From NCBI GenBank assembly GCA_019057375.1, contig DXJF01000013.1, positions 1 through 11,877 of the forward strand: a DNA stretch of 11,877 nt, in the 5' to 3' direction. The notes under the pieces are model-generated. The model ran no database searches and had not been told where the DNA came from. It saw only the letters and a program-made list of their open reading frames with translations. Source of the stretch: Candidatus Heimdallarchaeota archaeon. Its GTDB lineage: Archaea > Asgardarchaeota > Heimdallarchaeia > Heimdallarchaeales > Heimdallarchaeaceae. Position numbers and translations under genes: made by a program. Of this stretch, positions 2,949 through 11,877 are shown piece after piece (the stretch's first letter is position 1; every line of letters begins with the position of its first letter).

Positions 2949-5252
2949 TTATTTTTTCACTTTTTTAATTCCTTTTTTTACAGTATATTTTCCTGTAACG
3001 GATAATACTACAATTGCTGGAATTAATATCATGAAGCCATAATTTATCCTTTCCATGTTTTCATTCAATGGGTAAGGATCTGTAGAGTTTGCATTACCAT
3101 CGACAGGATAAGGTTTCTTACTATCCCAATCATACCAGAAATTGCCTTCTTTGGTTTCTTCTTCATACCAGGTATTATTAGTTCCCATATCATAAGCTTG
3201 AGAAGTACCTCCATAGGCATAAGAAGTACTTCCAAGATTGTTAGATATGAAAATATTATGGTGTATAATGTTACTTTCAGAACCAGATTCTAAAGCGATA
3301 CCATATTCTTCATTTTCCTTTAGAAGATTGTATGTTACTAGACAAGAATCGGAATTAATCAATCCGATTCCCCAGTTGTTGTATTTACATGTGTTATTAG
3401 TAATTAACGAACTTGAGGAACCTACTAAATATATACCTACATAGTTGTTTTCATTGCAAGTATTATTTGTCAGTGTAACAAATGATGAACCTTGAACTAA
3501 AATACCATCATCATTATTGTTACAAACGTTTTTTATTAGTGTCGCCCATGAAGAGTGATATAAGCGGATTCCTCCAAAATAGTTATTTTGGCATATATTG
3601 TCTATTAAAACTATATAAGAAGAATGCTCTACCCTAATCCCCCAATCATTGTCATAACAAACATTGTTTATTAGTGTAGCATTAGGTGAAAAACGTAAAT
3701 AGATTCCACCACATACGTTATTTTCCAATACAACTCCTGGACAAGCTAGCACATGAATATTCTCTTCTAGATTATCATTGCACATATTGTTCAATATCCA
3801 TGCATCATCAGAAATTAATAAATGAAAACCATCCCGCTCATTATTGAAGCAAGCGTTGTTTTGCAACATTACATCTGTAGTATATTCAACAGAAATTCCA
3901 TCATGGGAATTGTAGCTGCACGTATTGTTTTCCAGAATAATCTCGAAAGAAAAAGATACAAAGATGCCATCCATATTATTATTGCAAATATTATTAATCA
4001 ACATAACATTTGTGGAATTTTCTACATTAATGCTCTCATAATCATTATTATTACATGTATTGTTGATTATTGTTGCTTTTTCACACCATTTAAGATCTAT
4101 ACCAAAAGCAGTATTAGTTAATTCTTGGTTGCATATCACTACTTTTGAGCAATTAATCAGAATATATTGTGCATAGCCTTGTTCTGATAAAATCAAACCA
4201 TCTTGATTGATATAAAAACCTATTTTCTTTCCATTTACCAAGTTGTTCTCTAATGTATAATTAAGGTAAGATTCAATAGAATTTTCTGAGACATAAAAAC
4301 CATTATTCTGTATAGTATTGTTGATTAAAGTCGATCCTGCTGAACCTGATATAAAGATACCCTGATATTTATTGTTATTGCAAGTGTTGTTAATCAGTGT
4401 CGCTCTAGCTGAATAGTACATAGAAAGACCGTGTGATAAATAATTGTTATTACATACATTATTGATTATCACAGCTTCTGGTGAACTAGTTATTGCTAAA
4501 CCAGTATTCCCATTATTGCTGCAATCATTATTGGTCACAATAATCTTTGATGAATCCATTATCCTTATACCAACAGCATAGTTATTCGTACAAATACTAT
4601 TAATTATAGAAGCTCTAAAGGAGTATTCTAATAAAATACCTAAAGCATTAGCTTGACAAGTATTGTTTATTAAAACGGTTTCAGGTGAATACCGTACAAA
4701 AATACCGTACCAAACATTAATATTACATGTATTATTTATCACTGTAGATCCTAAACAATGGGATAACGAGATACCTTTACTTCTCCAATAATAATTATTG
4801 TTGCAAATGTTATTAGTCAGGGTTGCATTATTTGAATAGAATACTCTAATTCCATCCCCTCTATTATTACTGCAAGTAGTATTAGTAATAGAAACTGTTC
4901 CTTCAGCTGCATGTTCAATAACTATAGCATCCCAATATGCAAGAACATAACAGTTGCGAACAACAAAGTGTTTTGTTGTACCATTAATATAAATACCTGT
5001 GTCACTAGAAGTAATAATTTCATAATTTTCAATTATATATGGTTCTCCTGAAGTTCCAGATCCAAGAAAACCATAATCTGTGAAATTATCATCATTAACA
5101 ATTACTATAGGATCTCGTGGAACTAAGGACATAATTGTAGGATTAGTGAATTGGTATGTGTAATTAGAAGCAAAGATTGGTTGTATTCTGAAAGTACTTG
5201 TTGAAAGTATAGCCACAATAACTATGATACCAAATACTAGCTTCTTGTTCAT
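2949..5252 (-). CDS. Cell-surface right-handed parallel beta-helix protein (NosD/CASH, PbH1 repeats) with signal peptide and C-terminal membrane anchor
   Basis: 767 aa. Signal peptide MNKKLVFGIIVIVAIL, the motif GSGTSGEPYIIEN, about 20 repeats of GI-x-L-x2-S-x3-T-L-x-NNxCxxN, C-terminal GNFW...DPYPL, then a hydrophobic segment and a Lys tail. Confidence 0.9.
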   Translation of the reverse strand: MNKKLVFGIIVIVAILSTSTFRIQPIFASNYTYQFTNPTIMSLVPRDPIVIVNDDNFTDYGFLGSGTSGEPYIIENYEIITSSDTGIYINGTTKHFVVRNCYVLAYWDAIVIEHAAEGTVSITNTTCSNNRGDGIRVFYSNNATLTNNICNNNYYWRSKGISLSHCLGSTVINNTCNINVWYGIFVRYSPETVLINNTCQANALGILLEYSFRASIINSICTNNYAVGIRIMDSSKIIVTNNDCSNNGNTGLAITSSPEAVIINNVCNNNYLSHGLSMYYSARATLINNTCNNNKYQGIFISGSAGSTLINNTIQNNGFYVSENSIESYLNYTLENNLVNGKKIGFYINQDGLILSEQGYAQYILINCSKVVICNQELTNTAFGIDLKWCEKATIINNTCNNNDYESINVENSTNVMLINNICNNNMDGIFVSFSFEIILENNTCSYNSHDGISVEYTTDVMLQNNACFNNERDGFHLLISDDAWILNNMCNDNLEENIHVLACPGVVLENNVCGGIYLRFSPNATLINNVCYDNDWGIRVEHSSYIVLIDNICQNNYFGGIRLYHSSWATLIKNVCNNNDDGILVQGSSFVTLTNNTCNENNYVGIYLVGSSSSLITNNTCKYNNWGIGLINSDSCLVTYNLLKENEEYGIALESGSESNIIHHNIFISNNLGSTSYAYGGTSQAYDMGTNNTWYEEETKEGNFWYDWDSKKPYPVDGNANSTDPYPLNENMERINYGFMILIPAIVVLSVTGKYTVKKGIKKVKK

Positions 5253-5280
5253 TTTTTTTCACTTAAAACAAAGCTAGTTA

Positions 5281-5295
5281 TTATAAAATTATAAA
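5281..5295 (-). promoter_or_regulatory. Probable TATA box(es) for the beta-helix gene
   Basis: Two minus-strand TTTATAA elements (5281-5287 and 5289-5295) lie 29-43 nt upstream of ATG 5252. Confidence 0.45.
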
Positions 5296-5323
5296 TGTTT
5301 GTGCTTAAAGTAAAAATTTTCTA

Positions 5324-5426
5324 TCTGTAATAGAATGTTCTTAATGCCTGTATTACCTCCAGTTCCAGCTGCTAACAAAATGGATTATACAGAAGATGGA
5401 GAAATTATAGAGTTAAACTAACCCTA
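5324..5426 (+). repeat. Direct repeat copy 2: detached, decayed 3' end of fhs (CNRMFLMPVLPPVPAANKMDYTEDGEIIELN*)
   Basis: 88% identical (91/103) to 2839-2941 with the same frame and stop. Two family-conserved Gly residues (PGL, IxGL) are changed. Confidence 0.95.
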
Positions 5427-5457
5427 CTTTCATTATTTTTTAAAATCTAAAGAATTT

Positions 5458-5904
5458 TTATTGGTGTTTCATAAGATTTTCAAGCAATCTTTCTAAATAT
5501 CTTTCAAATACATCTATCTCTGAGCTTGTAAATCCTTCATAGAATAAATCTGTCATCTCTCTTGATACTCCTAGATATCTTTCCTGAAGTTTTTTCCCTT
5601 CATCAGTTAGATAGATGAGTATTTTACGTCTATCTGTTTTACATGGAACACGTTGCAAATATCCTGCTTCTTCAAGACGATCTAACATAGATGTTAGTGT
5701 TGATTTAGTTAGAGCTGTTTCTTTTGTAAGTTTCACTATTGATATTCCATCTTCTTTCCATAAAGGAAACATAATTCTTCCTTGTGCTGAATTAATCTTA
5801 TCTAGTTTACTTTGTTTAAGTATTCTTGTGAATATGCGTCTTGAAAGTTGATGAATCTTCGAAATAAGGTAACCACCCTTTCTTTGATTTTTCATTGTTT
5901 TCAA
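5458..5904 (-). CDS. MarR-family transcriptional regulator
   Basis: INSAQGRIMFPLWKEDGISIVKLTKETALTKSTLTSMLDRLEEAGYLQRVPCKTDRRKILIYLT is a winged HTH with the DRR wing motif. The start is TTG 5904 or ATG 5895. Confidence 0.93.
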   Translation of the reverse strand: MKTMKNQRKGGYLISKIHQLSRRIFTRILKQSKLDKINSAQGRIMFPLWKEDGISIVKLTKETALTKSTLTSMLDRLEEAGYLQRVPCKTDRRKILIYLTDEGKKLQERYLGVSREMTDLFYEGFTSSEIDVFERYLERLLENLMKHQ

Positions 5905-5920
5905 TAATCCTAGTTTTTTC

Positions 5921-6376
5921 TTATTCTAAATTTTCCGGTATTAGAAAGGAAACATTGCTTAGTTTATGATAGTAATTCCCTGCTTCGGCAACAAAATGAA
6001 ATACAGTATAATCAGGATCATCTACACCAAGAGGGTAATATTTTTCACAACCATCTTCCCACAACATTTCTCTTGATTCTTTATCACGTTTAATTTCTGT
6101 TCTTCCTAAAAGCATCAATCCTTCCCAAGTTTCAAAGTCAACAAAATAAACACAAGTTTTTTTGTTTAGTTTTATTTGTGTTACTCTTTTTGAGGAAGTA
6201 TTGGTTGAAAACCAAATTTCCTTCAAGCCATTATATTTAGCGTTTATCATTGCTTTAATGTTTGGATAACTATCCTCTCCTATTGTACCCACCATAGCAA
6301 TTTCACTCCTTTTAACTAACTCCATGCTTTTTTCTAATGCCAAATTGATTTTTTCTCCTTTTTTCATTCTAATCAC
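5921..6376 (-). CDS. Pyridoxamine 5'-phosphate oxidase-like FMN-binding split-barrel protein
   Basis: IAMVGTIGEDSYPNIKAM..IWFSTNTSSKRVTQIKLNKKTCVYF..GLMLLG..LWEDGCEKYYPLGVDDPDYTV. The start is GTG 6376 or ATG 6367. It lies 16 nt from the MarR gene on the same strand. Confidence 0.88.
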   Translation of the reverse strand: MIRMKKGEKINLALEKSMELVKRSEIAMVGTIGEDSYPNIKAMINAKYNGLKEIWFSTNTSSKRVTQIKLNKKTCVYFVDFETWEGLMLLGRTEIKRDKESREMLWEDGCEKYYPLGVDDPDYTVFHFVAEAGNYYHKLSNVSFLIPENLE

Positions 6377-6377
6377 A

Positions 6378-6424
6378 TATAGTTTGATATAGGACTATAC
6401 TATATAGAACTATATAATCTTTTC
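6378..6424 (-). promoter_or_regulatory. Promoter (BRE/TATA) with an adjacent palindromic operator, probably the MarR site
   Basis: The minus strand reads AGAAAAGA-TTATATA (TATA at 6411-6417). Imperfect palindrome TATAGT-N10-ACTATA at 6378-6399. A 13-bp direct repeat atatagRactata occurs at 6387-6399 and 6402-6414. Confidence 0.6.
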
Positions 6425-6653
6425 TAACCTTGTCTTTTTTATAATAATTAATTAAAAAGCATGAATTTACTCTCTTGGTCATTTTAAAAAGAAGAATATA
6501 GTTGCAGAATTAAGAGATAAAGGTCTTATTATGATTGGTCTTCGAAAAATATTCAATAAGGAATAAAATTTATTCTTTTTCTTCCTTCTTTTTGTGTAAA
6601 ACGATTGGTTGGTAGAAGTATTTTTAATCTGAAAGATGATTAAACTATTTGTC

Positions 6654-7655
6654 ATGTCAGTACTCATAACAGGTATAACTGGTTTCCTAGGTACTAATTT
6701 AGTGAAGGAGATAAGGAAAAGATACCCAAACAAAAGAATATCAGGGTTGGTTCTTCCTGGTGAAAAAGAGAAATGTGAGGAATTAAATAAGTATGATATA
6801 GATTTCTTCTTTGGGGATCTTGATTCGAAAGAAAGCTTGGTAGGATGTTTAGATGATGTTGAATCAGTTTACCATTTAGCAGCTGTTGTAGATGATCTTG
6901 CACCAATGTCTAGTTTTTACAGAATTAATCACATTGGAACTAAGAATTTGCTTGATGAATTTATTAGAGCTGGTTCAAGGAAATTCATCTATATGTCTAC
7001 ATTAGGTGTTTATGGCTTCAAATTCCCAGATTATCCAATCGATGAAACATACAGAGTTGATTTAATTCCAGGATATAGAGAAAGTAAGTATTTGGGGGAA
7101 CAAGAAGTATTCAAGTATGCGGAGGAATTTGGATTTAAAGCTTCAGCATTAAGGCCTCCTATCATCTTTGGTCCTGGAGATCACTGGGCTCCAACAGTAT
7201 TCAATTTAGTCGAAAATAATCTTAAAATACCCTTCATCACCAAAGGAAAAGTAATTTTTTCTTATAGCTATTTTGAAGATGTTGTTGATGCTTTGATAAA
7301 AATGGAAGAAGTAGATAAGGCCAGAGGGGAAATATTTAATCACACTAGTTTTATTCTTACTAGACACGAACTATTTGAAACAGCTGCTAAAATATGTAAA
7401 ACAAAGCTTAATTCTTTCAACCTAAATTATAATATTGCTATGCTTATTGGCTTCTTTGGAGAGCTACAATGGAAACTTTTCAAGAAAAAACCATTGTTAA
7501 ATAGATATAGAGTTAATCAGATGGGCAAGACTAGAATAGTGAATACAGAGAAAATCGAAAGCATTTTGGGTGTTACTAGTAAGAAAACATTCAAAGAAGC
7601 TTTAACAGAAACTTATAACTGGTATTTGAAAAATAAAAAAGAGCAGGGAATATAA
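6654..7655 (+). CDS. NAD-dependent epimerase/dehydratase, extended SDR (3-beta-HSD-like subgroup)
   Basis: LITGITGFLG (GxxGxxG), YHLAA, YMSTLGVYG, catalytic YRESK (YxxxK), LRPPIIFGPGD. The track start is 6636; ATG 6654 fits the fold better. Confidence 0.92.
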   Translation: MSVLITGITGFLGTNLVKEIRKRYPNKRISGLVLPGEKEKCEELNKYDIDFFFGDLDSKESLVGCLDDVESVYHLAAVVDDLAPMSSFYRINHIGTKNLLDEFIRAGSRKFIYMSTLGVYGFKFPDYPIDETYRVDLIPGYRESKYLGEQEVFKYAEEFGFKASALRPPIIFGPGDHWAPTVFNLVENNLKIPFITKGKVIFSYSYFEDVVDALIKMEEVDKARGEIFNHTSFILTRHELFETAAKICKTKLNSFNLNYNIAMLIGFFGELQWKLFKKKPLLNRYRVNQMGKTRIVNTEKIESILGVTSKKTFKEALTETYNWYLKNKKEQGI

Positions 7656-7681
7656 ATTTCTAGTTCTGCTCTTTGAGTTGT

Positions 7682-8458
7682 TTATATTTTGAATTTGGTT
7701 GATTCAAAATAATTTAGATGAACTATTTCACAACCACAGTTTTCTGCAGCTGTGCCATAATTATTTAGAAACATTAAATCCGCTCCTTCTGCATAATGAA
7801 TAGGTATGAAATATTCTGGATTTATTGTATCGATAGCATTGACAACATCTTGATCTACCATAGTTTGACATCCTGGTCCTAAAGGTAACAGGGCAACATT
7901 GATTAAGTCAGTTATCTGCGAATATTCTGGAATGTTTGATGAATCTCCAGCATGGAAGAATGTGAATCCATCAATATCTATTATGTAGCTAGTATAATTA
8001 CTCTCTTGAGGATGACTAGAGACATAACCTAAAGGAGCAAAAGTATACATGTAGAAGGCTGTTATTTTAATAGGTCCAATATTAAAAGTGTCTCCAGGTT
8101 TTACTCCTGTTCCATTATATCCGGTAATGAAGCTAGTCATGATTTCTGGGAAGAAGAATTGTGTATCATCTTTTTCTATTAGCTGTAACATCGTAGTTGA
8201 ACAGTGGTCTCCATGATCGTGAGTTATGAGCACTGCATCCGCAGGATAATCACTATAATTACTTGGCAAATTATAAGGATCAATGTAAATTCTCAAACCC
8301 TTTGCTTCTATCATTACACCAGCATTATATAGAAGTGTGAAATTAATTGTTGAGTTTTTATTAACAATAACTACAGCTGTTGGAACAACTACTGCAGTCA
8401 CAGCTACTGCTGAACTTACTATTATAATTAAGATTATTGCTTTCTTTGTAAGAGCCAT
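7682..8458 (-). CDS. Membrane-anchored or exported metallo-beta-lactamase-fold hydrolase (UPF0173-like)
   Basis: YIDPY, LITHDHGDH (HxHxDH), FFHAGDS, PIHY. N-terminal hydrophobic helix after MALTKK. Confidence 0.9.
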   Translation of the reverse strand: MALTKKAIILIIIVSSAVAVTAVVVPTAVVIVNKNSTINFTLLYNAGVMIEAKGLRIYIDPYNLPSNYSDYPADAVLITHDHGDHCSTTMLQLIEKDDTQFFFPEIMTSFITGYNGTGVKPGDTFNIGPIKITAFYMYTFAPLGYVSSHPQESNYTSYIIDIDGFTFFHAGDSSNIPEYSQITDLINVALLPLGPGCQTMVDQDVVNAIDTINPEYFIPIHYAEGADLMFLNNYGTAAENCGCEIVHLNYFESTKFKI

Positions 8459-9058: not shown

Positions 9059-10300
9059 TCATTTACTTTCTTCTGTTTCATATGTTATTTCACATATTCT
9101 ATGTTTACTCTTAAGCAAGTTAATTGTAACTTTGCTTGAATCTTTAATCCACTTTTCACAGGAATTACAGATTATTTCATTTGGGTATCTCCAATAATTG
9201 CAAACAACAAGGAATTTAACCTGTTCTTCCGTTTCTTGAATAAAATGATCGGATATGAATGGTGCTTTGTTAAACAATTGAATTAGTCTTATCATTGGAT
9301 CAAATTCATAGTAGAACTGTTCTCCTATATCATCTCTGATGAGTTCTATTGTTTTTTCTCTATCTTCTATAGCCATTTCCCTGATTGTTTGATCTTCTCT
9401 ATATGAAGTGATTTCTCTATTTGATCCACCAGGAGCTATTTGAAAAATACAATCCTTTACATAACTGTATTCAGAAGCACATCTCATCTCATCACAGATG
9501 ATATGCTCATCTAGAATTTTACTGAAGACTGCTTCAAGCATACCTTCAACAAAAGCACAAGTCTTTGTAGCAATTACTCCTAAAGATTCTGTCCAAATAG
9601 AACTATCAAGTGAGACTGTTGCTACCTTCTCTCCTGGATCAAAATGAAGTATGTTGATATTTCCCCATCTAGAAATAATTGGAGATTGTACTATTGCATC
9701 TAAATAAGACCTTAAGTTTTCAAATTCCCCTTCATGAACTTGTTGTAAGACTTGTTTTCCTGCTTCATAACCTATTTTTCCGAGAATTTGAGAAGTTGCG
9801 TCCTTAGCGCCTTCAAATTGCCCATAGAATATTTCTTGAAAAATGTTTATTGCATTGTCTCTTAATGCGTTCAAGCAAGTTTCAATTTCAGGAAAATCAT
9901 CTAAAATTGGATTAGAATATGTTATGATAATAAACATTTCAGAAAGCATCATGAGTTTGCTTATTGTTTTTGACATTTCCTCTTCGAGCGATGATATTGT
10001 AAGATATTCCGTAATTGTAGGGTCAAAAATCACAAATGAAATCATGAATTGTTCAACTCCTCCCCTCGCCATTGGATTTGGTATTGAGAAAAACATGCTT
10101 GAATAAACAACATTTGCCATTGCATTGACAATTGCTTTCATTTCTTGAAGAAAATTAAAATCCATAAGTCTTGTTAAGGAAGCTGTAATTCTAGGGTCTT
10201 GTATTTCAGCTACATTGAACAGTAATCTAGGTCCTAATCTTTGATCAAAGTGAAATAACATCACGTTAATCCTATTTCTTAGATCTACTCTTTCAGTCAT
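9059..10300 (-). CDS. Multidomain protein: longin/uDENN(NPR2)-like N-terminus, V4R domain with Zn ligands, Cys-containing C-terminal domain
   Basis: N-terminal MLFHFDQRLGPRLLF and IPNPMARGGVEQFMISFV. V4R region: LGKIGYEAGK..RWGNINI..TCAFVEGMLEAVFS..CDEMRC..KDCIFQI, with C248-E271-C274-C284. Confidence 0.8.
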   Translation of the reverse strand: MTERVDLRNRINVMLFHFDQRLGPRLLFNVAEIQDPRITASLTRLMDFNFLQEMKAIVNAMANVVYSSMFFSIPNPMARGGVEQFMISFVIFDPTITEYLTISSLEEEMSKTISKLMMLSEMFIIITYSNPILDDFPEIETCLNALRDNAINIFQEIFYGQFEGAKDATSQILGKIGYEAGKQVLQQVHEGEFENLRSYLDAIVQSPIISRWGNINILHFDPGEKVATVSLDSSIWTESLGVIATKTCAFVEGMLEAVFSKILDEHIICDEMRCASEYSYVKDCIFQIAPGGSNREITSYREDQTIREMAIEDREKTIELIRDDIGEQFYYEFDPMIRLIQLFNKAPFISDHFIQETEEQVKFLVVCNYWRYPNEIICNSCEKWIKDSSKVTINLLKSKHRICEITYETEESK

Positions 10301-11357
10301 TTGTCATCATCTTTTTGGAAGCATAAATATAAGCTAAACTAAATGATGGATTTATTTCTGCTGTTTTAATAATATCTGCTGCTCTACTTATATCACTATA
10401 TTCATTCTTCTCCAATAGATATTGATAAAGAATATTCGCCCCAATTCCTGTTATAATAATTTTATTCAGTTGATATTCTTCCTTCTTCCTTTTTATTATC
10501 TGATTGATTCTTTCAAGCATTTTCACCTTTAATAAATGAGCAATCTTGATTAAGTCTAGTTCATCAAATTTTTCATCAACAATGCAAAACATGCTTTTTA
10601 CTCTATTCAAGGCATCTTCCTTGAATTTTGCTTTTTTATCTGGTGTATTTGTAATATAATCAGATGGTTGTATATCCTCTGTTATTGTAAAAATGTCCGC
10701 AGTTATTGCATGAGTTTCGAATGGGAGATTGAATGTTTTTCCATTATACTCGAAAGTAGGTTGGATAAAAGCTGCATTTGTTTCCATCAATCCTAAAAAA
10801 ACCAATTCATCATTCATCATTCGATCATGGTCTGATTTAGAATTAGAAAGTATTTTTCCTTCTCGAATGGGGATGAAACTTGTTGTTCGTGTTGAAAAGT
10901 CAACTATCAGACCATCCTGCTTTATCATTTGCCATAATCCTTTTCCAAGTGCCTTCCATCCAACCGAAACCACTTTAGAAGGATTTTCTAAAGCTTGTTT
11001 AATAGATACAAATTCTTCATCATGTGTGTAAAGAACAATATTCGCAGGTTGTATGAATTTAGTAACTGAATTAATAATGAATTCCACAGTTTCTTTTGCT
11101 GAAGCAAAAAGAGGACTAGTAGTAGTTAAAATAAACTTTCGGATATTATAATCAGCATAGGAGCGCAAGATAGTCTTTAGATCTCCTTCTACTTCCTCTT
11201 TTCTTATTTTTAAAGGAAAATAAATTCTTTGGGAATGGAAAGGTTCTTCTGGATGAGTGGGATCAACTATCACTATTTTAAGTGATGTCACTCCAAAATC
11301 CAATACGGCAATATTTCCTTTATCACTGGTAAAGCTTGTTGATTTGTTAGTTGCCAT
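10293..11357 (-). CDS. mfnF: Divergent MfnF-like protein (hydantoinase/oxoprolinase family, ASKHA actin-like fold; H4MPT/methanofuran-linked C1 family)
   Basis: Motifs are collinear with MfnF/Orf9 as recalled: AVLDFGVTSLK, YFPL, SVGW, DGLIVDFSTRTTSFIPI, SDHDRMMNDELVFLG, AITADI, DYITNTPD, ITGIGANIL. The gene overlaps the downstream gene by 8 bp (ATGACTGA). Confidence 0.8.
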   Translation of the reverse strand: MATNKSTSFTSDKGNIAVLDFGVTSLKIVIVDPTHPEEPFHSQRIYFPLKIRKEEVEGDLKTILRSYADYNIRKFILTTTSPLFASAKETVEFIINSVTKFIQPANIVLYTHDEEFVSIKQALENPSKVVSVGWKALGKGLWQMIKQDGLIVDFSTRTTSFIPIREGKILSNSKSDHDRMMNDELVFLGLMETNAAFIQPTFEYNGKTFNLPFETHAITADIFTITEDIQPSDYITNTPDKKAKFKEDALNRVKSMFCIVDEKFDELDLIKIAHLLKVKMLERINQIIKRKKEEYQLNKIIITGIGANILYQYLLEKNEYSDISRAADIIKTAEINPSFSLAYIYASKKMMTND

Positions 11358-11380
11358 CTATTTACAATCTATGAATTTCA

Positions 11381-11388
11381 TTAATAAA
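11381..11388 (-). promoter_or_regulatory. Probable TATA box of a leaderless promoter for the mfnF-like/longin-V4R operon
   Basis: Minus-strand TTTATTAA is centred ~27 nt upstream of ATG 11357. Confidence 0.45.
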
Positions 11389-11404
11389 AGCTAGGATATT
11401 CTTC

Positions 11405-11877
11405 TCAACGTTTTCTATATCCTGTACCCTCGGGTTCATCATCGATATCTTCTAACTTCTTAATCTTCTTGGATTTCGCTAATTCCTTTTCTTTCTTAGC
11501 TATTTCAGGAAGTTCTTCTCTTATGTTTGTAGAAAACTTTGCTTTTGGGTGCATATGTTTGATGTGAAGAATGATCTCTGATAGATCTTCATTAGAAATG
11601 AACTCACCAACAAAAAATTCTTTTCCACTTCGAAGTTGAATCACAAGCATAGCTTTATTTCTATATTTTCTCCACATATCCAATGATAGTTTTCTGGGAA
11701 TCCGTGACAAACCATATTTTCTTACTTCTTTAACTAGTATTTTTCCTTTCTTTGTCCTATATCCAGTCATCAAAAGTGGTGTTGAGCGATAATATATTTC
11801 TGCACCTACGATTTTGATGAAATCTTTGGTATAGAAAAATTCCTTAATTGTTCTATTTACAAAAATAAACAGAGGAA
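11405..11877 (-). CDS. C-terminal part of a hypothetical protein that begins beyond the right edge; possibly a PH-like beta domain after a membrane segment
   Basis: The frame stays open upstream of the track start 11773 to the window end: PLFIFVNRTIKEFFYTKDFIKIVGAEIYYRSTPLLMTGY...LVIQLRSGKEFFVG...LSEIILHIK, followed by a charged tail. Confidence 0.7.
   Translation of the reverse strand, partial: PLFIFVNRTIKEFFYTKDFIKIVGAEIYYRSTPLLMTGYRTKKGKILVKEVRKYGLSRIPRKLSLDMWRKYRNKAMLVIQLRSGKEFFVGEFISNEDLSEIILHIKHMHPKAKFSTNIREELPEIAKKEKELAKSKKIKKLEDIDDEPEGTGYRKR

Follow-up and report, generated by a model that had tools for sequence, protein, structure and literature searches.

The question raised by this locus is what becomes of an enzyme of cofactor biosynthesis in a lineage that has lost the pathway to which the enzyme belonged. 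The DNA analyzed here, referred to as the window, is the entire 11,877-bp contig DXJF01000013.1 of a Heimdallarchaeaceae genome (GCA_019057375.1; 3.47 Mb, 89% complete). It encodes P0001, an actin-fold (ASKHA) protein related to MfnF, the enzyme that joins the furan and glutamyl-tyramine parts of methanofuran (F1-PP and γ-glutamyltyramine), and the gene for P0001 overlaps that for P0002, a protein with longin and V4R domains. An initial annotation of the window proposed that P0001 is an inactive or repurposed one-carbon cofactor enzyme that may report metabolite status to a longin-type GTPase regulator, an interpretation that is borne out in part by the present analysis. P0001 descends from MfnF, is encoded in a lineage that has lost the methanofuran pathway, has lost the most conserved motifs of its family, is under purifying selection, and occupies a conserved gene block; very probably, it is a repurposed protein and not MfnF. 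On the complete statement, that it is a repurposed MfnF descendant specific to the Heimdallarchaeaceae and a non-catalytic partner of the longin-V4R protein, our judgment is evenly divided. The features central to the argument are as follows.

10293..11357, minus strand: P0001, MfnF-derived ASKHA (actin-fold) protein, 354 aa (open reading frame (ORF), translation, profile matches, and AlphaFold2 (AF2) model)
9059..10300, minus strand: P0002, protein with longin, V4R/TRAPPC3-like, and Cys/His-rich C-terminal domains, 413 aa (ORF, profile and AF2 structure matches)
10293..10300, minus strand: stop/start overlap of the P0001 and P0002 genes, 8 bp, ATGACTGA (read directly from the sequence)

Relationship of P0001 to MfnF

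The score of P0001 against the Pfam family Hydantoinase_A (PF01968) is 36.1 bits, above the cut-off of 22.9. The profiles for TIGR03123 (tetrahydromethanopterin (H4MPT)-linked C1 transfer pathway protein) and for MfnF (NF040623, an NCBIfam equivalog) both match it from end to end with E values of about 1e-50, but the scores, 173.3 and 171.7 bits, fall short of the curated cut-offs of 244.1 and 520 bits, respectively. Ten canonical representatives, among them proteins whose names point to Odinarchaeum, Baldrarchaeia, Hermodarchaeota, Hydrothermarchaeota, MSBL1, and Methanocellales, score 280–385 bits with TIGR03123, and the MfnF of Methanothermococcus scores 595 bits with the MfnF model. The nearest solved structure by sequence is that of the M. 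maripaludis ortholog Q6M145 (3c0b/3cet; E 4e-36), and this is also the best match in the Protein Data Bank (PDB) for the AF2 model of P0001 (template modeling (TM) score 0.77, 26% identity), which has a mean predicted local distance difference test (pLDDT) value of 93.2 and a predicted TM score (pTM) of 0.90. The matches that come next are ASKHA activators, PilM, EutJ, and ROK proteins (E about 1e-7, TM 0.4–0.47), the top matches all being ASKHA proteins. The profile scores and the predicted fold therefore indicate that P0001 is well folded, belongs to the ASKHA proteins, and derives from MfnF, but falls outside the curated boundaries of the family.

Motif Substitutions

Three of the altered segments of P0001, located by alignment, are referred to below.

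11277..11300, minus strand: phosphate-1 loop, residues 20–27, DFGVTSLK (family: DIGGANTK)
10878..10901, minus strand: phosphate-2 loop, residues 153–160, DFSTRTTS (family: DxGSTTTD)
10776..10793, minus strand: residues 189–194, GLMETN, with a Glu invariant in the clade in place of the Arg invariant in the family (R192E)

For comparison with the family, 31 members of the clade that contains P0001 were aligned with 108 canonical representatives obtained by an exhaustive search of a library of 1.8 billion proteins. The six motif strings quoted in the initial annotation (DFGVTSLK, TTTSPLFA, SVGW, DFSTRTTSFIP, GLMET, and RVKS) are all present in the translation of P0001, and the MfnF consensus against which they had been set is reproduced by an alignment of 104 members (GLDIGGANxK, TMTAELxD, AAANW, DxGSTTTDIIP, GxLRT, and RLAR). 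These six had been singled out as the most conserved motifs; among them RxAR is the weakest, its second Arg being 94% conserved, and the sequence of the M. maripaludis structure reads RISK at this site.

The substitutions are beyond the normal variation of the family. The phosphate-1 set Asp20/Gly22/Gly23/Lys27 is complete in 101 of 108 canonical members and in none of the 31 clade members, and the phosphate-2 set Asp153/Gly155/Asp160 is complete in 103 of 108 and, again, in none of the 31. Conservation in the canonical set reaches 95% or more at 26 positions; 11 of these (Gly23, Asp82, Gly90, Asn133, Gly155, Ser156, Thr157, Asp160, Arg192, Phe216, and Asp260) are replaced in >90% of clade members, ten are kept in at least 90%, and Arg179, Gly189, Asp221, Gly304, and Gly306 are invariant in the clade. 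Gly23 is lost in all 31 members, and Gly155 is replaced by Ser in 29 of 31, Thr157 by Arg in 26, and Asp160 by Ser in 27. Asn133, conserved in 100% of the canonical set, is Gly in 30 of 31, and Arg192, conserved in 99%, is Glu in every clade member; Gly189 and Thr193 accompany Glu192 in all 31, and Asn194, which varies in the family at large, is also clade-invariant. The TAELxD loop has a deletion of 2–3 residues throughout the clade (3 in the window protein), and the adenosine GxG motif is invariant.

Other positions have been relaxed rather than replaced. The Asp20/Gly22/Lys27 triad is retained in 20 of 31 clade members and Asp20 by itself in 26; Asp153 and Asp176, both 100% conserved in canonical members, are kept in 23 and 25, respectively, so that Asp20, Asp153, and Asp176 vary in 16–26% of the clade, the states found being Asp, Asn, His, or Glu at position 153 and Asp or Asn at position 176. 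In three members the phosphate-1 loop reads EFGATIQN, and in P0027 it reads NFSSSILE, although the P0027 gene sits in an intact four-gene block (locus L006).

Conservation within the Clade

The gene is nonetheless maintained. Intact ORFs of 344–369 aa with no internal stops are present in 29 of the 30 other Heimdallarchaeaceae species genomes, and the ratio of nonsynonymous to synonymous substitution rates (dN/dS) between orthologs of P0001 is 0.03–0.26, about twice that of the longin-V4R gene (0.02–0.12). Of 46 family-conserved positions, 27 are kept in the clade and have an entropy of 0.48 versus a background of 1.22 (p = 4e-7). The 19 that have changed are of two kinds, some re-fixed to a new residue (N133G, G155S, R192E, and L226T) and others relaxed (Gly23, Arg255, and Asp260, with entropies of 1.9–2.2). 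A further 35 positions are invariant in the clade only, with a cluster at residues 61–75. The idea that all of the active-site changes are adaptive re-fixations was dropped, the changed positions being jointly no more conserved than background (p = 0.14).

Distribution of the Clade and Loss of the Methanofuran Pathway

Of the 30 other species genomes of the Heimdallarchaeaceae, 29 encode a member of the clade, with 42–90% identity to P0001, and elsewhere in the phylum there are only matches of 23–30% identity. In the 1.8-billion-protein library, five representatives score at least 286 bits and are followed by a gap down to 134 bits or less. In a FastTree phylogeny the clade is monophyletic with a support of 100, and no internal branch is longer than the one that leads to it (1.4 changes per site); the root of this tree is arbitrary, and it does not resolve the sister group of the clade.

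The initial annotation had noted no other methanofuran gene in the window, and profile searches of the window likewise find none; a second, canonical MfnF-like gene was sought in the 89% complete genome and not found. Among 31 Heimdallarchaeaceae genomes, two of which are single contigs, there are no matches for Ftr, none for Mch, and none above the cut-off for FwdA, and MfnB is found in one. This lone MfnB (4HFCP_synth, 254.6 bits) is at positions 1452–2135 of contig C25 of genome G018, in which neither Ftr nor Mch was found, and either belongs to a contaminating contig, the genome having 5% contamination, or is an isolated remnant. Of 400 genomes of the phylum, 281 have Ftr, the occurrence of which parallels that of canonical MfnF-like matches; in family f7, 12 of 12 genomes have Ftr and 10 of 12 an MfnF-like gene, and in family f20 the corresponding counts are 131 and 117 of 135. 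Family f1 stands apart, with Ftr in 0 of 30 and an MfnF-like gene in 29 of 30. A published analysis reports that Heimdallarchaeia have lost the Wood-Ljungdahl pathway completely (PMC9982363). The restriction of the clade to the Heimdallarchaeaceae, together with the near-total absence of these marker genes from the 31 genomes, therefore shows that P0001 is not a methanofuran enzyme.

Canonical MfnF genes have a different setting. On a Baldrarchaeia contig the gene lies in a methanofuran cluster, beside genes for an ATP-grasp protein (MfnD-like), a kinase, and MfnB, and on another contig its neighbors encode ATP-grasp, radical SAM, and pyridoxal phosphate-dependent decarboxylase proteins. In the Baldrarchaeia locus (L043, positions 3754–8341), MfnF is flanked by the ATP-grasp gene and an amino-acid-kinase-family gene, with MfnB two genes away; the AA_kinase protein may stand in for the adenylate-kinase-like MfnE.

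Organization of the Four-gene Block

Upstream of the P0001 gene the window contains the following features.

11358..11404, minus strand: intergenic gap upstream of the MfnF-like gene, 47 bp, containing the TATA-like box (read directly)
11381..11390, minus strand: TATA-like box, cttttattaa, ~28 nt upstream of the MfnF-like ATG (read directly; putative promoter element)
11405..11877, minus strand: 3' part of a gene for a membrane protein with two transmembrane helices (2TM), cut by the contig end (whole protein ~214–217 aa; from translation)

Conservation of the gene pair was examined in three public contigs and ~25 species genomes, in which identity to P0001 extends down to 42%. The pair is present at every locus of the family with flanking sequence, and wherever the flanks of an orthologous locus are long enough, the order of genes is URO-D-like (~332 aa), 2TM (210–217 aa), MfnF-like, and longin-V4R. 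With the exception of L004, all loci with flanks have the 2TM gene as the immediate upstream neighbor of the MfnF-like gene. At positions 5582–5929 of L004, a TnpB-like ORF (Pfam Cas12f1-like_TNB, 115 aa) is found between these two genes, and the MfnF-like/longin-V4R pair is undisturbed. Because this ORF splits the block after the 2TM gene, the last two genes can form a unit of their own.

The ORFs that give rise to the 8-bp overlap described in the initial annotation both exist, and most of the orthologous loci in the genus likewise have a stop/start overlap, of the form ATGnnTGA or TAATG. What supports the dedicated promoter proposed at the same time is conservation of the TATA-like box, which keeps its position in most orthologous loci of the genus while the flanking bases differ; it is at the same distance in L010–L018, L024–L031, and L006, and a variant is present in L019–L021 and L004.

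The URO-D-like protein is distantly related to the MtaA/CmuA methyltransferases, with scores of 67–81 bits that are below the cut-off. In P0181 (L008, positions 6300–7295) and its orthologs, residues His223, His225, Cys307, Cys83, and His246-Asp247 are invariant in 31 sequences. The His223-x-His225...Cys307 set is similar to the MtaA zinc site, and its conservation suggests that the protein keeps a metal site in which His replaces the first Cys of the MtaA-type HxC...C motif. No Pfam or NCBIfam family matches the 2TM protein, the full-length ortholog of which, P0179, carries two hydrophobic helices at the N terminus and a tail rich in Lys and Glu. A match of the 2TM protein to a bacterial PH domain (Atlas score 0.88) was too weak to use.

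A formate-tetrahydrofolate (THF) ligase gene or fragment is located within a few kb of the block in four loci, which may be synteny by descent within one family. In L004 and L006 the genes near the block are full-length (563 aa). In the window, the plus strand ORF at 2430–2936 encodes only the C-terminal 166 residues of the ligase (positions 390–555 of the 556 of Pfam FTHFS), and the window gene looks truncated or rearranged. Just upstream of this fragment, the plus strand ORF at 671–2359 encodes a protein of 562 aa that matches no Pfam or NCBIfam family.

The Longin-V4R Protein

The assignment of longin and V4R domains to P0002 is upheld by its AF2 model (pLDDT 75.7), in which both are matched, the sequence itself scoring 27.9 bits against Pfam V4R (cut-off 31). 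Residues 5–160 align with longin domains, among them that of the Loki Roadblock-Longin protein (8yqg; Z 11.5), FLCN (Z 10.6), Lst4 (Z 10.1), and a GATOR1 chain (Z 10.1), and residues ~100–295 align with the V4R domain of the DmpR/PoxR/MopR phenol sensors (Z 13.5) and with TRAPP Bet3/Trs33 (about Z 11). The residues invariant among its orthologs include Cys248, Cys269, Cys274, Cys284, Cys367, Cys378, Cys381, His400, and Cys403; the last five lie in a C-terminal segment, residues 292–413 (9059–9427), which is predicted to be β-rich and is barely covered by the structure matches.

An ortholog of P0002 is present in 31 of 31 Heimdallarchaeaceae genomes. These proteins are highly conserved (58–97% identity), and the first 100 residues are nearly invariant. 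The sole distant full-length homolog (428 aa, 27% identity; L039, positions 6086–7372) is from genome G010 of a sister family, in which the gene sits among ESCRT-like genes (UEV/E2-like, Vps28, and EAP30/Vps36-like) beside a Tsr3-like gene; its neighborhood contains no MfnF-like gene. No GTPase genes were found in the four neighborhoods searched, namely the window and the flanks of L004, L006, and L008. Co-folding of P0002 with P0001 gave a score of 0.00 and no verdict, and it is used neither for nor against binding.

Proposed Role of P0001 and Alternative Explanations

In the sequence of events that we favor, the lineage would have lost the methanofuran/H4MPT pathway and kept its MfnF gene, which would then have diverged markedly along the stem branch of the clade before it became fixed in the four-gene block. 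An altered copy of MfnF has been kept after loss of the pathway and is always beside the longin-V4R gene, so the enzyme fold has a new job. The two genes are probably co-transcribed from their own TATA box, and their translation is probably coupled in most species. The ancestral motifs have in part become fixed anew in the clade and are in part free to vary; the most likely role of P0001 is therefore that of a non-catalytic subunit that would bind a ligand or partner and work with the longin-V4R protein. For this it could use what remains of the ASKHA cleft (Gly133-Trp134, Arg179, Gly189, Glu192-Thr193-Asn194, Asp221, and the GxG motif) together with the new invariant patch at residues 61–75. 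Of the two descriptions, inactive or repurposed, given in the initial annotation, the second is well supported by the scores below the curated cut-offs and by the loss of the pathway, and catalytic inactivity, which would follow from the variation of residues, is likely.

Several points weigh against the non-catalytic role. The argument for inactivity is one of conservation, because we know of no experimental definition of the catalytic residues of MfnF, and most members of the clade keep Asp20, Gly22, Lys27, Asp153, Asp176, Glu214, Asp221, Asp240, and Arg252. These retained residues, together with the re-fixed N133G, G155S, R192E, and L226T, also fit a change of substrate. In other ASKHA ATPases, Hsp70 and glycerol kinase among them, DxGxT..K with a single Gly is a normal form of the phosphate-1 loop. 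The invariant His223-x-His225...Cys307 set of the URO-D-like protein gives the block a metabolic flavor. In the deepest genera (L035–L037), the MfnF-like and longin-V4R genes are separated by a gap of 35–147 bp and do not overlap, and contact between P0001 and P0002 is hypothetical.

The main competing explanation is that P0001 is still an enzyme, either a transferase of the MfnF type or an ASKHA enzyme resembling a kinase, in which swapped specificity residues accommodate a new substrate. With the URO-D/MtaA-like metalloenzyme it would serve a small pathway peculiar to the lineage, the V4R domain binding or delivering a hydrophobic or phenolic substrate. This is possible, although we consider it unlikely. 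It would account for the strong constraint on the 27 retained positions of the 46, for the acidic and Arg/Lys residues kept by most members, and for the sites re-fixed to one new residue (N133G in 30, G155S in 29, and R192E in all 31). Most of the residues lost carry a charge or are aromatic (Asp82, Asp160, Asp260, Arg192, Arg255, Trp50, and Phe216), as might be expected if recognition of the zwitterionic MfnF substrates, and not the whole site, had been lost; in addition, the URO-D-like neighbor keeps its putative metal site, and the closest structure matches of the V4R domain bind phenols, the natural acceptor of MfnF being a phenol. However, a universally used active site is expected to be invariant, and in this clade there is variation at Asp153 and Asp176, which are the same in all 108 canonical members, the phosphate-1 loop is wholly lost in some orthologs within the block (EFGATIQN and NFSSSILE), and the most conserved glycine is gone from both phosphate loops. 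Inactivity is the more likely because residues that never changed in the canonical family are dispensable in some members of the clade. P0001 might instead be a nucleotide-dependent ASKHA switch, chaperone, or scaffold of the EutJ, PilM, FtsA, or HgdC type that acts on the 2TM or URO-D-like protein and not on the longin-V4R protein. Such proteins, namely ASKHA activators, PilM, EutJ, and ROK proteins, are the next structure matches after 3cet/3c0b, the adenosine GxG motif is invariant, and the 2TM protein is encoded just upstream. To our knowledge, however, the DxG glycine of the phosphate-2 loop is almost universal in ASKHA ATPases, and it is Ser in 29 of 31 members; the phosphate-1 loop is not conserved in the clade, and the overlap and the tightest linkage are with the longin-V4R gene rather than with the 2TM gene, from which the MfnF-like gene is separated in L004 by the TnpB-like ORF. 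A switch of this kind is accordingly quite improbable.

Two further explanations are contradicted by the data. That P0001 is an ordinary active MfnF, its substitutions being normal family variation, is extremely unlikely; it is the only MfnF-like gene product in its genome and has the same fold as the M. maripaludis ortholog, but it scores below both curated cut-offs, 11 of the 26 near-invariant positions are replaced, its gene is outside an mfn cluster, unlike canonical copies, and the pathway markers (Ftr 0, Mch 0, FwdA above the cut-off 0, and MfnB 1 in 31 genomes) are all but missing from the lineage. A decaying, functionless relic of the lost pathway is more doubtful still. The formerly invariant Gly23, Arg255, and Asp260 now vary freely, as they might in such a relic, but the dN/dS values of 0.03–0.26, the intact ORFs in 29 other species genomes, the confident structure model, and the 35 positions invariant only in the clade are those of a protein under selection.

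The locus provides a clean example of the fate of a cofactor-biosynthesis enzyme after loss of its pathway, in which the fold is kept, remodeled, and locked into a new operon. If P0001 and P0002 bind to one another and the ASKHA cleft binds a metabolite, the pair would constitute a metabolite-linked longin module in archaea; if P0001 proves to be an enzyme, it would add a new reaction to the MfnF family.

Comparison with Known Systems

P0001 shares with MfnF (TIGR03123; Orf9), the (4-{4-[2-(γ-L-glutamylamino)ethyl]phenoxymethyl}furan-2-yl)methanamine synthase, the two-domain ASKHA fold, an alignment over the full length, and the order of motifs, and the residues common to both include Trp134, Arg179, Gly189, Thr193, Asp221, and GxG. 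It differs in that both phosphate loops, Asn133, Arg192, Phe216, and Asp260 are replaced and the TAELxD loop is 3 residues shorter, and also in having no mfn neighbors, a different conserved operon, and a host lineage without the methanofuran/H4MPT pathway.

A Heimdall longin-TRAPPC3 fusion protein, MBD3190748.1, is known from AF2 modeling (Commun Biol 2024, PMC10933270). The fusion has the same architecture as P0002, in which a longin domain at the N terminus precedes a TRAPPC3/V4R domain that has a zinc site based on Cys residues, and it comes from the same lineage, the comparison being one of architecture; the passages found in that paper make no mention of an adjacent MfnF-like gene or of the four-gene block. 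P0001 is a concrete candidate partner for the longin-TRAPPC3/V4R fusion of the Heimdallarchaeaceae, which unites two fold types found in the membrane-traffic and nutrient-signaling complexes of eukaryotes.

Eukaryotic longin complexes of the GATOR/FLCN type are controlled by the enzyme-derived sensors SAMTOR, CASTOR, and Sestrin. The longin domain of P0002 resembles those of FLCN, Lst4, and Nprl (Z 10–10.6), and P0001 likewise has an enzyme-derived fold with altered motifs; however, P0001 has no homology to those sensors, the annotated neighborhoods contain no Rag-type GTPase gene, and the link to a longin-type GTPase regulator is drawn by analogy. A detailed scheme, in which P0001 as a pseudoenzyme would bind a small metabolite (possibly phosphorylated or C1-related), contact the longin-V4R protein directly at a membrane-anchored complex, and thereby control the action of a longin-type regulator on an Asgard small GTPase, as an archaeal counterpart of the GATOR1/FLCN sensors, is in our view improbable.

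A precedent with respect to the fold is provided by the ROK-family repressors (Mlc, NagC, and Lmo0178), which are among the structure matches of P0001. These proteins belong to a different ASKHA family and carry a DNA-binding domain, which P0001 lacks, but in them an ASKHA sugar-kinase fold has been kept for the sensing of ligands and not for catalysis.

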